From a bacterium (GTDB lineage Bacteria > Zhuqueibacterota > Zhuqueibacteria > Residuimicrobiales > Krinioviventaceae), in assembly GCA_963674595.2 (NCBI GenBank), contig CAXXFV010000027.1, positions 352,001 to 416,000 on the forward strand: DNA of 64,000 nt, in the 5' to 3' direction. This document shows, in pieces, positions 59,534 through 62,697 of the stretch. Position 1 is the stretch's first letter. Each line of letters starts with the position of its first letter. Below the pieces are notes generated by a model. The model was not told the origin of the DNA, did not search any database, and saw only the letters and a list, made by a program, of their open reading frames with translations. Made by a program: the position numbers and the translations under genes.

Positions 59534-60811
59534 ATGATTAGTAAAACACTCAAAAAGCAAATCGTCGAAAAAATTTTACAAAGTTCAGAATTCGCAAATT
59601 CAAAAACGAATAAAGATCTGTTAACGTATTTGATTAAAAATCATCTGGACGGTGAAATTCCAAATGAGACAGAAATTGCAATTGAAATTTTAAATAGAGA
59701 TAAAAGCTTTAATTCGAGTGAAGATCCGATAGTGCGTGTTCACATGCACAAGCTACGGAAGAAACTTGAAAATTATTATCAGACTGAAGGAAAAAATGAA
59801 AAAATTCATTTAGAAATACCTAAAGGAAGGTATGCTTTAAAATTTTCTACAGTCTGTCAGGATCCGGTTTCGGAGACTAAAAAAAAGCCTTACTTTTATA
59901 TTGCCATGATTGTTGTTTTATGCATTATATGCGCGGCTTTGGGATACCAGACATGGTCTCTGAATGGAAAAATGAAACAGCATTCTATAATTAGTAAAAA
60001 AGATAAAATTTGGAAAGAATTCCTGAACGGTTCTCACCAAATTCTTTTTGTTCTCGGCAACCATTTGTTTTTTTCCGAATATTCAAAAGACTTAAAAAAA
60101 TGGAGATATGTACGGGATACTGCTATAAACAGTAAAGAAGAGTTGGAAAACTTTATCAAAACATATCCCAAATTTTATGTTGAAGAAACCAATGAAGCAT
60201 ACTTTCCGGATAGCGGTATCTTTGGTATGTCACCGTTACTTTACACACTGTATCCTGTTCGTAATAAAATAATCTTTCGCCGTGCAATGGACGTTACACC
60301 GGCTTTTCTTCGCGAGTATGATATACTTTTTGTGGGCAGTATTAAAACACTTGGAATATTAAACCAAATTTTTTCCGCCTCAAACTTTAAATACCATGTT
60401 AGACCTAATGAATTATTTTTTACTCCTCCGGAAACCCCTCTGGCCCGCAGTGATTATTCAAAAAAGATTTTTTATACAAATCCGGAAACACTTAAAACCG
60501 ACACGCTTGAAACAACATTTAACAACTATACCGGTTACAATCGTGATCTTGCTGTTGTATTAAAAGTTCCTGGTCCGATGAAAAACACAATCTTTATTAT
60601 CTCTTCCTTCTTTTCATCCGGAGCACCGGAAGTTGCTAAATATCTGACAGATAAAAACACTCTTGAACAAATAGAACAGAGATTTATCGAAAAATATACT
60701 TATGTTCCAGACTATTTTGAAATTCTATTCGAAGTTAGAGGAATTGAAAAAACGGGGCTTTCAACCAAGATCATCTACTTTAACGAACTTGTGAATGCCA
60801 ACATCTGGTAA
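59534..60811 (+). CDS. Membrane-anchored one-component transcriptional regulator (N-terminal winged-helix-like domain, TM helix, periplasmic sensor)
   Basis: ILQSSEFANS...LLTYL...ETEIAIEIL...DPIVRVHMHKLRKKLENYY...IPKGRY N-domain; single TM segment (YFYIAMIVVLCIICAALG). Confidence 0.75.
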   Translation: MISKTLKKQIVEKILQSSEFANSKTNKDLLTYLIKNHLDGEIPNETEIAIEILNRDKSFNSSEDPIVRVHMHKLRKKLENYYQTEGKNEKIHLEIPKGRYALKFSTVCQDPVSETKKKPYFYIAMIVVLCIICAALGYQTWSLNGKMKQHSIISKKDKIWKEFLNGSHQILFVLGNHLFFSEYSKDLKKWRYVRDTAINSKEELENFIKTYPKFYVEETNEAYFPDSGIFGMSPLLYTLYPVRNKIIFRRAMDVTPAFLREYDILFVGSIKTLGILNQIFSASNFKYHVRPNELFFTPPETPLARSDYSKKIFYTNPETLKTDTLETTFNNYTGYNRDLAVVLKVPGPMKNTIFIISSFFSSGAPEVAKYLTDKNTLEQIEQRFIEKYTYVPDYFEILFEVRGIEKTGLSTKIIYFNELVNANIW

Positions 60812-60915: not shown

Positions 60916-61878
60916 ATGAAAAAAGTAGTTTATCTATTTTTACTTTTCACACCTATTTTCGCCCAGTCACAACAATCCGACTTTCTCCACTTAAACAAAA
61001 TTATAGCCAGACTGGAAGCAAATCAAATTGCTTTGGGAACCTGGTGCAGCGCCCTCCATCCTTCAAATGCTGTCGGTATGATAGACTGTAATGGCTACCC
61101 CACTTTTGAAGAATCTCAAAACAAAGCGATGCTTGATTTTATACTCATCGATATGGAACATCAACCATTTGATATCAGCATGTTGAGAAATTATTTGTTG
61201 GCATTAAATTCAAAGCGTGAGGTTGCCGCCAAAGGCAATTTGCAGCCTAATATTGCAACTCTTGTTAGGATTCCTGCAGACGGCAACCAACCAGTTCATG
61301 CAATGATAAAACAAGTTTTGGATATAGGTGTTCATGGAGTTGTTGTTCCACATGTACAAAATGCTCAGGAAGCTAAAAAAGTTATCAGTGCTTGCCGTTA
61401 TGTTCAAACAAAAAGTTCAAAATATTCTTATCCGCAGGGAACAAGAGGAGCATCTCCCTGGCTGGCCTCTTATCTGTGGGGACTTTCATTACCGGATTAT
61501 GTTGCCAGGGCAGATGTTTGGCCTTTGAATCCTGATGGAGATATTATGGCAATTTTGATGATAGAAGATATTGCCGGTGTAGAAAATATTAAAGAGATAT
61601 TAAAGGTTCCCGGAATAGGAGCGATTATTTTCGGGCCCTATGATTTTAGTTTTTATGCAGGTTGCCCCGGAGAAACAACCAACAAGACTGTGGTACAAAG
61701 TTGGCAAATTATTAAAAAAGCTTGCGACGAAGCAAACGTTCCGCTCATTGGCTTTGCAAATGAAAACAATATAGATGAAAAATTAAAAGAAAATTATAAA
61801 ATGATATTGGCGGGTCACGATGTTCGGAATAACGGTACGTTCCCGCAAGTCCTAAAAGCAGTTCAAAAAACATATTAA
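60916..61878 (+). CDS. HpcH/HpaI aldolase/citrate lyase family protein with N-terminal signal peptide
   Basis: DFILIDMEH, LVRIP, VLDIGVHGVVVPHV, MIED and IFGPYDFS motifs; AAGGAG RBS. Confidence 0.85.
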   Translation: MKKVVYLFLLFTPIFAQSQQSDFLHLNKIIARLEANQIALGTWCSALHPSNAVGMIDCNGYPTFEESQNKAMLDFILIDMEHQPFDISMLRNYLLALNSKREVAAKGNLQPNIATLVRIPADGNQPVHAMIKQVLDIGVHGVVVPHVQNAQEAKKVISACRYVQTKSSKYSYPQGTRGASPWLASYLWGLSLPDYVARADVWPLNPDGDIMAILMIEDIAGVENIKEILKVPGIGAIIFGPYDFSFYAGCPGETTNKTVVQSWQIIKKACDEANVPLIGFANENNIDEKLKENYKMILAGHDVRNNGTFPQVLKAVQKTY

Positions 61879-61917
61879 ATACATAATAATTTTCTCAATT
61901 ATACATACAATTCCTGA

Positions 61918-61946
61918 TTGAAATTATATATAAAGTGTGTTATATT
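61918..61946 (+). promoter_or_regulatory. Sigma70-type promoter for hairpin copy 1
   Basis: TTGAAA-17 bp-TATATT with TG extended -10. Confidence 0.65.
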
Positions 61947-61951
61947 TAATC

Positions 61952-62021
61952 AGATTTAAACGAGCATCACCCCCGGCGACGGCGACCCCCCTAAGTCGTT
62001 GCTGAGATGCTCGTTTTTTTT
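61952..62021 (+). ncRNA. Candidate C-rich small RNA, copy 1
   Basis: Core 61961-62013 folds as a two-stem hairpin with an ACCCC bulge and GACCCCCCUAA loop; U8 tail; upstream promoter. Start inferred. Confidence 0.65.
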
Positions 62022-62073
62022 ATGTCTTAAAGATTCAGAAATTTCCTGACGTATAAATACAAGGTTCTCCCTA

Positions 62074-62107
62074 TTGTTTTGATTGATATAAAGTTTTACC
62101 TTATACT
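62074..62107 (+). promoter_or_regulatory. Sigma70-type promoter(s) for hairpin copy 2
   Basis: TTGATT(62079)-17-TATACT(62102), overlapping TTGTTT(62074)-17-TACCTT(62097). Confidence 0.6.
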
Positions 62108-62108
62108 A

Positions 62109-62183
62109 GTTAATTTGATTTAACGAGCATCACCCCCGGTGACGGTGACCCCCCTAAGCCGTTGCTGAGATGCTCGTTTTTTT
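62109..62183 (+). ncRNA. Candidate C-rich small RNA, copy 2
   Basis: Core 62124-62176; three substitutions versus copy 1, all keep pairing; U7 tail. Start inferred. Confidence 0.65.
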
Positions 62184-62263
62184 ATGTTAATATGTCTATA
62201 AAAATAAAAATTTATATTTTTTAATTAAGAAAATTCCTTACGTAAAATTACACATTTTCCCTA

Positions 62264-62292
62264 TTGTTTTATTTAATAAAGAGTTGTATATT
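62264..62292 (+). promoter_or_regulatory. Sigma70-type promoter for hairpin copy 3
   Basis: TTGTTT-17 bp-TATATT. Confidence 0.6.
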
Positions 62293-62297
62293 TAATT

Positions 62298-62376
62298 AGT
62301 TAATTTGATTTGTCGAGCATCACCCCCGGTGACGGTGACCCCCCTAAGCCGTTGCTGAGATGCTCGACTTTTTTTT
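62298..62376 (+). ncRNA. Candidate C-rich small RNA, copy 3
   Basis: Core 62314-62366 identical to copy 2; closing pairs changed AA/TT to GT/AC (compensatory); U8 tail. Start inferred. Confidence 0.65.
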
Positions 62377-62508
62377 GCCCTTCTTATATTTAACTTCTTT
62401 TTTTATTCTTTAGAATTTCGTACTTTTCAAAACAGGTCATACGGAAATGGAGACTCATTTTCTAAAATTAAGTATAGTCTCAAAACTTAATTAAAAAAGG
62501 ATATTCAC

Positions 62509-62697
62509 GTGTCCACAATTATCCCTAAAGGTGAAAAAACAAGACGTGCCGTAAAATGGATTTCGGAACAAAGTAAAAACTCTGACAAAGATACGAAAAC
62601 ACTTGTAGCCTCGGCAATTTCGATGTTTGATCTGAATCCATTCGAATCGGAAACGCTTTACCATTTTTACAAAGATACTACAAATTCCAGCGAATAA
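62509..62697 (+). CDS. Small helical hypothetical protein (62 aa)
   Basis: GTG start after AAAGGA; protein-like composition (KGEKTRRAVKWISEQ...FDLNP); stop lies 1 nt before the next ATG. Confidence 0.7.
   Translation: MSTIIPKGEKTRRAVKWISEQSKNSDKDTKTLVASAISMFDLNPFESETLYHFYKDTTNSSE

Follow-up and report, generated by a model that had tools for sequence, protein, structure and literature searches.

Several described small RNAs (sRNAs) of bacteria present C-rich loops and are close in design to the element analysed here. LhrC of Listeria monocytogenes is encoded by near-identical short genes, partly arranged head to tail, each of which has its own promoter and intrinsic terminator; its C-rich motifs are exposed in loops or single strands, and its transcription depends on a two-component response regulator. 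The conserved feature of 6C RNA in Actinobacteria is a run of six or more cytosines in its hairpin loops, and in Rhodobacter and alphaproteobacteria the CcsR (cuckoo) RNAs form tandem series of homologous hairpins, also with C-rich loops. RsaE/RoxS of Staphylococcus and Bacillus is described, partly in PMC4409812, as a conserved sRNA whose unpaired C-rich motifs pair with G-rich ribosome-binding regions and which is under two-component or redox control. Here, we report a tandem array of three hairpin units with C-rich loops in a 64,000-nt stretch of bacterial DNA (contig CAXXFV010000027.1 of assembly GCA_963674595.2, positions 352,001 to 416,000; hereafter the window). An earlier note on this DNA, prepared from the letters of the window, had read the array as a candidate new sRNA family, and this interpretation is supported computationally by the lack of an Rfam family, the homologues found with a covariance model, strong covariation and a near-invariant loop.

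The hairpin array and its homologues

The array lies on the forward strand of an AT-rich 630-nt spacer and consists of three GC-rich 53-nt cores, located exactly where the earlier note had placed them. Coordinates below are those of the window unless another contig is named; MFE is the minimum free energy in kcal/mol and R2 the broader of two covariance models described below.

61959..62021, + strand: unit 1 sRNA hairpin (core 61961-62013) with a U8 tail; MFE -29.4, z -6.86; R2 score 79.6 bits
62122..62183, + strand: unit 2 sRNA hairpin (core 62124-62176) with a U7 tail; MFE -26.3, z -6.52; R2 score 81.6 bits
62312..62376, + strand: unit 3 sRNA hairpin (core 62314-62366, closing pairs GU/AC) with a U8 tail; MFE -29.0, z -6.23; R2 score 86.6 bits

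When the core pattern was searched in the whole 6.6-Mb genome with up to three mismatches, these three forward matches were the only ones, with no reverse and no control matches. The direct-repeat unit is about 119 nt long and thus exceeds the core, so that the promoters were duplicated along with the hairpins; the repeats are spaced by 163 and 190 nt, with identities to the reference copy of 87% and 65%. All three copies have the same + strand fold, in which the 5-nt internal loop ACCCC, facing a single bulged A, separates an outer helix of 10 bp from an inner helix of 10 bp with several G-U pairs, and the inner helix is capped by an 11-nt apical loop, GACCCCCCUAA; two closing pairs flank the core, and the U7-8 tail described previously follows each hairpin. 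The folds are stable (MFE -26.3 to -29.4 kcal/mol, z -6.2 to -6.9, with none of 200 shuffles folding as well), and the MFE structure accounts for 54-75% of the ensemble. The reverse strand of the copies folds more weakly and into a different shape (z -2.7 to -4.9). Comparison of the three copies showed 60 of 60 cells paired, and no difference between copies breaks pairing, as had been claimed: three pairs are altered on one side only (C-G/U-G, G-C/G-U), and both closing pairs of copy 3 are altered on both sides (AU to GC and AU to UA). Covariation among the three copies alone is not significant, being equalled by 56 of 500 shuffles.

The sequence had not been recognised as 6C RNA, LhrC or a cuckoo RNA, and Rfam 15, which includes 6C, RsaE, CsrB/RsmY/RsmZ and Qrr, gave no matches at gathering scores in the whole window. 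At E<10, only noise was found in the region 61850-62450; the best match was tsr25 (17.9 bits against a cut-off of 63), and further sub-threshold noise near the array (Lig_thermometer, PK-repZ, bxd_4, ctRNA_pGA1 and LSU_trypano_mito) was far below the respective cut-offs. A covariance model built from the three window copies (R1), a step that had been proposed in the earlier note, detected relatives in 33 of 61 related genomes. These matches had the same hairpin, in which both stems were rewritten by compensatory changes and the loop was untouched. The second, broader model (R2) was built from 37 matches and detected the family in 48 of 151 genomes drawn across the phylum, with 1-7 matches per genome that often formed tandem pairs. 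Within its own order, 35 of 36 genomes contained the family (16/16 in family f1, 12/12 in f2, 1/1 in f3 and 6/7 in f4), and additional members occurred in sister families of the class (4/4 in f6, 2/5 in f7, 2/18 in f8, 3/10 in f10 and 1/1 in f12). R2 had no matches in 16 other families sampled within the phylum, and the result for a Bacteroidota-type control phylum, the one that holds a Ferruginibacter metagenome-assembled genome (MAG), was 0/151.

The exact pattern was also sought in a single genome for each of 185,579 species, and 32 stretches were returned. All 27 stretches that were confirmed by the model lie in KSB1-type MAGs, and the five unconfirmed ones (Richelia, Bacillota, Ferruginibacter, Saccharibacteria and Lactiplantibacillus) correspond to expected chance hits. 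The host group of the RNA family is KSB1-type bacteria. Titles of the records that carry the family are inconsistent and include candidate division KSB1, "uncultured Cytophagia", Calditrichota, Desulfobacterales, Actinomycetota and "bacterium". With R2, even at E<=1, the genome analysed here yields five hairpins, of which three form the window array and two make up a single unit on a different contig. A REP/MITE-like repeat was rejected on this copy number (five hairpins at two loci in 6.6 Mb, and 1-7 matches in other genomes); dozens of dispersed promoterless copies, which the earlier note had named as the mark of such an element, were not seen, and the window units and the second locus have a common promoter-region motif.

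The covariation proposed from the three copies became clear in the larger sets. Among 36 distinct sequences, 19 of 20 pairs varied on both sides, and with 77 distinct sequences (79 matches at 67 loci) all 20 pairs did so, in 359 cells. In the latter set, 91.8% of cells pair, compared with 67.4% in column shuffles (none of 500 reached 91.8%) and at most 44.5% when the partners were slid. Folding each sequence alone, as a check that needs no alignment, left the C-run unpaired within an apical loop of 10-14 nt in all 77 cases, with a median z of -4.9 and 70 of the 77 below -3. The apical loop is nearly invariant and reads [G/A]ACCCCCCUAA in most members; GACCCCCCTAA was found 34 times and AACCCCCCTAA(T/C) 24 times among the 77 sequences, and the remainder were near variants. 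This invariance extends to the non-C flanks ([G/A]A...UAA) across the class while the stems drift. Both C-tracts had been called invariant on the basis of the window copies; this holds, nearly, for the C-run of the loop, whereas the 5' internal C-run (C4-5) is retained in the own order and not always kept in distant families. In the family consensus, every copy terminates in a U-run. Overall, the hairpins very probably constitute a genuine, conserved, structured RNA family. It is a previously undescribed family of sibling C-rich-loop sRNAs, of a kind that is already known elsewhere, and a literature search at the abstract level found no regulatory RNA described for KSB1-type bacteria.

A common upstream motif and a linked two-component system

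Upstream of each hairpin, a 38-nt motif and promoter-like hexamers were detected. Motif scores are from a position weight matrix.

61887..61924, + strand: unit 1 upstream/-35 motif of 38 nt, the weakest of the three copies; 19.3 bits (G000:C27:413887)
61918..61946, + strand: unit 1 predicted sigma-70-type promoter TTGAAA-17-TATATT, with TG before the -10; consensus scan, 10/12
62043..62080, + strand: unit 2 upstream/-35 motif of 38 nt, TTCCTGAC..ATAC..CTCCCTATTGTTTT; 38.7 bits, the best in the genome
62079..62107, + strand: unit 2 promoter-like element TTGATT-17-TATACT; consensus scan, 9/12
62234..62271, + strand: unit 3 upstream/-35 motif of 38 nt, TTCCTTAC..TTAC..TTTCCCTATTGTTTT; 22.7 bits
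62264..62292, + strand: unit 3 predicted promoter TTGTTT-17-(TG)TATATT; read by eye, with 3/6 matches in the -35

The usual spacing would put the start of unit 1 near 61952-61954. Judged by homology, the hexamers of unit 2 sit 5 nt further downstream than those of unit 3, and the motif score of unit 3 is reduced by a 1-nt spacing difference. Each copy had been credited with a -35/-10 pair spaced by 17 bp; the consensus scan recovered those of copies 1 and 2, but the pair of copy 3 falls below the scan rule, which requires four of six matches in the -35 hexamer, and was read by eye. Since the scan found 5 promoter-like sites in total compared with 4.1 expected by chance, and such sites are common in AT-rich DNA, the hexamers alone are weak evidence.

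The common upstream motif is stronger evidence for promoters than the hexamers. About 80 nt upstream of each window hairpin is conserved between the copies and across genomes, and many loci have the motif TTCCT(T/G)AC-N7-ATAC-N5/6-TTTCCCTATTG(T)TTT, with the -35 hexamer at its end. Starting from unit 3, we iterated a weight matrix of 38 nt, which split 60 unique upstream regions of first hairpins into 27 that score 19.3-44.8 bits and 33 that do not exceed -0.6 bits; shuffled upstream sequences, of which 1200 were scored, reached 5.9 bits at most. All three window units fall in the high-scoring group. The best sites in the genome scored 38.7, 30.3, 22.7, 19.4 and 19.3 bits, followed by 18.1 bits, and four of these best five are sRNA promoters. 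The fifth, G000:C22:16731 (- strand, 19.4 bits), is the sole site of the genome outside the sRNA loci with a score in the range of the sRNA promoters; it could mark an additional member of the regulon or have arisen by chance.

The second locus of this genome (G000:C3:275762-275896, - strand; L068/L102) has two hairpins in one unit, the first of which lacks a U-tail. The gene order is a histidine kinase (five PAS domains and HisKA_3, 1234 aa), a response regulator (Response_reg and GerE, 221 aa) and the two-hairpin sRNA, which lies 123 nt behind the regulator by model coordinates (171 nt by a rougher survey of open reading frames, ORFs). The promoter-region motif is common to this locus and the window units and nearly unique to them genome-wide. 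Such a regulator was the nearest upstream same-strand ORF at 16 of the 46 surveyed loci, six of which duplicate other places, leaving 40 distinct places; 14 of the 15 other upstream regulators are 46-60% identical to that of this genome, and one is 25% identical. A regulator search in 43 genomes of the order gave 37 genomes with a match at E<=1e-40. In 19 of the 37, the best regulator match is followed on the same strand, at a distance of up to about 300 nt, by a family hairpin, and adjacency occurs through a second regulator match in one further genome. Against the UvrY/SirA/GacA model, the regulator of this genome scores 148.5 bits, below the cut-off of 280. We infer that this regulator drives all of the sibling promoters. 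Downstream of the second-locus sRNA are SGL, TPR, a 157-aa ORF and a LysM-SLT gene; a lytic transglycosylase gene, found three genes downstream here, is also located downstream of the hairpins at four distant-family loci.

Different types of promoter and context were observed in other families. In f8, f10 and f12, hairpins at six loci follow sigma-54-like TGGCA(C/T)-N5-TTG(C/T) elements, and no activator gene adjoins any of the six:

L088:1419, L089:1659, L096:1657, L090:1601, L092:1481 and L093:235: sigma-54-like elements in f8, f10 and f12

In f6, one family copy is located directly behind rpsT (L029, L083, L085 and L087; the S20 Pfam match was obtained for L029, and the upstream sequences of the other three are alike), which suggests a 3'-UTR-derived or terminator-sharing RNA. 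Another f6 copy is a two-hairpin unit behind TTGACA-17-TATATT. Because promoter and context types differ between families, the hairpin with its loop appears to be the conserved functional part, and its expression would have been rewired between families. A fragment of an RVT_1 reverse transcriptase was found downstream of one family locus (L024:460-1101, - strand). A link to retrons or group II introns was rejected: the reverse-transcriptase neighbour is present at only 1 of 46 loci and is probably unrelated.

The array spacer in the window is flanked by the following genes:

60916-61878, + strand: HpcH/HpaI-type aldolase gene, the upstream flank
62509-62697, + strand: 62-aa ORF, the downstream flank; the array is 133 nt upstream of it
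62699 onward (to 64000 in the window), + strand: B12-binding radical SAM gene, which follows the 62-aa ORF

The 62-aa ORF has no Pfam match and ends 1 nt ahead of the start of the radical SAM gene; the two could be a pair of a small protein or peptide substrate and its enzyme. A 425-aa ORF two genes upstream of the array (59534-60811) has a weak N-terminal match to Trans_reg_C, the OmpR/PhoB-type winged-helix domain (22 bits against a cut-off of 26.2), and no link between this ORF and the sRNA promoters was found.

Proposed mechanism and rival explanations

Each window unit is predicted to be a complete transcription unit of ~70-80 nt, in which the 38-nt motif overlaps the predicted sigma-70-type promoter and is followed by a short non-conserved 5' leader and a two-helix hairpin that doubles as an intrinsic terminator. 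We favour, with about even confidence, an account in which these are sibling sRNAs under two-component control that act in trans via their C-rich loops, preferably by base pairing with G-rich mRNA. The multi-PAS histidine kinase adjacent to the regulator would phosphorylate it, and the regulator would then bind the 38-nt motif and activate all sibling promoters, such that the sRNAs may be the main direct output of this PAS-kinase/NarL-type two-component system. The threefold tandem duplication in this genome would provide a higher dosage. The RNA would work in trans through the exposed C-rich loops, and its likeliest mode would be pairing of the loop with single-stranded G-rich sites, for example the G-rich ribosome-binding regions of target mRNAs. 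Pairing with G-rich mRNA sites has precedents in RsaE/RoxS, LhrC, 6C and RNAIII-type loops. It would operate without Hfq and fits this genome (97.6% complete) in that no Hfq domain was found.

Several points weigh against this account. Transcription of the window units is predicted at the level of sequence, and the link between regulator and promoters is drawn from adjacency and motif specificity. Adjacency was observed in none of the six f4 genomes that have a regulator homologue, 33 of the 60 upstream regions are without the 38-nt motif, and the separation achieved by the matrix is somewhat overstated because it was trained on sequences that include the four promoters of this genome. The alignments used for covariation were fitted to the model and lean towards its structure; structure-blind alignment (MAFFT followed by RNAalifold, 32 diverse sequences of the 77) recovered seven outer-helix pairs only and missed the inner helix, so the covariation counts for the inner helix come from the model-fitted alignments. 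Some loci have two or three hairpins per unit, a design equally typical of protein-sponge RNAs. The target search in the own genome did not yield a target set. The share of runs that precede the start codon of an ORF of 100 aa or longer is little higher for G5 (6.1%) than for C5 (4.3%). GGAGG/AGGAG, followed by the start codon of such an ORF in 14-17%, seem to be the preferred Shine-Dalgarno words of this genome, and a C6 loop is unable to pair perfectly with Shine-Dalgarno sequences of the GGAGG type. The 161 AGGGGGG sites in the genome form no coherent gene class, the six best ribosome-binding-site candidates, judged by eye from their sequences, belong to unrelated proteins, and no enrichment of G5 runs was found on the same strand in the 400 nt that follow family loci (1.03 per kb).

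Three other observations concern G-rich sites. Among the intergenic-like sites listed, one outside the sRNA loci, at G000:C3:15177 (+ strand), reads TTAGGGGGGG and then TAATCCCC; it complements the apical loop perfectly over 9 nt and lies behind a T-run in a small hairpin-like context. A dispersed AGGGGGG repeat on G000:C29:44904-49594 (- strand) has four copies that are 1.1-1.9 kb apart and have an identical 25 nt before the run. A second repeat element bearing AGGGGGG is present on at least four contigs (C3:117620, C9:141629, C10:52784 and C25:4885).

The C6 loops and C4-5 internal loops may alternatively be decoys for a C-rich-RNA-binding protein, for which a small RRM or KH-type protein would be a candidate; we regard such a sponge as possible, at about half the confidence given to base pairing. 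The two-component system would then set the level of free protein through the RNA, much as CsrA is controlled through GGA loops in the Gac/Rsm and BarA-UvrY/Csr systems. Modular units of two or three hairpins in one transcript-like arrangement are what a sponge would predict, and they were found at the second locus of this genome, at L021 (three hairpins), L010/L012, L082/L084/L086 and L088/L089/L096, with several loci per genome (1-7 matches). The constancy of the loop and its non-C flanks across the class while stems drift is typical of a site for a protein or for a fixed partner, the regulator belongs to the NarL/FixJ family like GacA/UvrY (148.5 bits against the 280 cut-off), the promoter motif hardly occurs outside sRNA genes, as is the case for GacA, no mRNA target class was found in the genome, and the genome encodes three RRM_1 proteins whereas Hfq was not found. 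Multi-hairpin units, loop invariance past the C-run and the sRNA-specific motif fit a sponge almost as well. However, no candidate protein was tied in by synteny or co-occurrence and none was put to the test, 1-3 hairpins per transcript are few compared with the many sites of CsrB-type sponges, and we know of no bacterial protein specific for C6 loops. CsrA, of which there is one gene in the genome, was excluded as the partner, as no GGA is present in any apical or internal loop. The earlier note had named both modes, and our preference for base pairing in trans over a protein sponge is inferential. A broader scenario, which we consider rather doubtful, is that these Hfq-less, uncultured bacteria of the Fibrobacterota-Chlorobiota-Bacteroidota neighbourhood have a global post-transcriptional switch that resembles Gac/Rsm but uses other components. 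In it, a PAS-kinase/NarL-type system would have the C6-loop sRNA genes as nearly its only direct targets, and the RNAs would titrate a C-rich-RNA-binding protein (e.g., a small RRM protein), with sister families rewired to sigma-54 promoters or to the rpsT 3' end.

Two explanations without a trans role appear much less probable than either base pairing or a sponge. The U-run at the end of every copy, the short distance (3-41 nt) between many copies and a convergent gene's stop codon (OmpA-family, PBP1C-type, transaldolase and TyrRS genes) and the f6 copy directly behind rpsT would suit a specialised intrinsic terminator or hairpin cassette, possibly bidirectional, that spreads by duplication and whose loop serves a terminator-associated factor. 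Such a cassette is improbable: five hairpins in 6.6 Mb contrast with the thousands of genes that need terminators, a plain terminator would need neither the invariant 11-nt loop and the internal loop nor the promoter-like elements and 38-nt motif with which the head-to-tail window copies are provided, and copies are kept across the class with compensatory changes. Very unlikely is a riboswitch-like cis leader or attenuator for the operon of the 62-aa ORF (62509) and the B12-binding radical SAM gene, although the array lies 133 nt upstream of this ORF on the same strand and each hairpin, as a terminator, could be passed by read-through. Downstream genes vary between homologous loci, and the next gene is often on the opposite strand; no other surveyed locus neighbours a radical SAM or HpcH gene; no alternative anti-terminator fold was found, the MFE structure accounting for 54-75% of the ensemble; and three full promoter-terminator units in series would make no sense as a leader.

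Comparison with known systems

Nearly all genomes sampled from one order carry the family, which is unusually well supported for a find made by computation only. It extends sibling sRNA systems with C-rich loops to a lineage distant from Firmicutes, Actinobacteria and Proteobacteria, and could become an Rfam family for annotating MAGs of this type. It also comes with a testable circuit of kinase, regulator, promoter motif and sRNA, of which the regulator and promoter could be transferred to a laboratory host, giving a handle on signalling in organisms that cannot be cultured.

Tandem units that each have a promoter and a terminator, the arrangement known from LhrC, are also seen in the sequence of the window, in its repeat, hexamers, motif and U-tails. 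LhrC, which has a Firmicutes host, differs in its three UCCC motifs, compared with a C6 loop and no UCCC in the window copies, and in its regulator, as LisR is of the OmpR type whereas the linked regulator here is of the NarL type (Response_reg and GerE); moreover, the window copies have no Rfam match beyond noise at E<10. RsaE/RoxS is usually a single-copy RNA from another phylum, with another fold and several C-rich regions in different hairpins, and the window array is without a match in Rfam to it. In 6C RNA, two stem-loops are present in one single-copy RNA of ~80-90 nt; the window units instead consist of a single hairpin, in which the apical loop is C6 and the internal loop C4-5, occur in several copies in a KSB1-type host and have no Rfam match. 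The cuckoo RNAs arise by processing of a transcript shared with a small-protein gene upstream of them, and their loops are CCUCCUCCC, whereas the window units have promoter-like elements and a terminator of their own. Qrr-type RNAs, which depend on a sigma-54 promoter and an NtrC-type activator, differ from the window units with their -35/-10 type elements; TGGCAC-N5-TTG(C/T) elements were found only at the six distant-family loci, with no adjoining activator gene.

The Gac/Rsm and BarA-UvrY/Csr systems (RsmX/Y/Z and CsrB/C) resemble the proposed circuit in having a NarL/FixJ-family regulator with an upstream site almost only at sRNA genes, binding to which is predicted here, and in having several sibling sRNAs whose repeated hairpins present one fixed loop motif. 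They differ in that the loop is GGA and not CCCCCC, in that far more hairpins are present per RNA, and in the regulator itself (148.5 against 280 bits here). The resemblance of the array to LhrC, 6C and the cuckoo RNAs is a likeness of design and not membership in any of these families.

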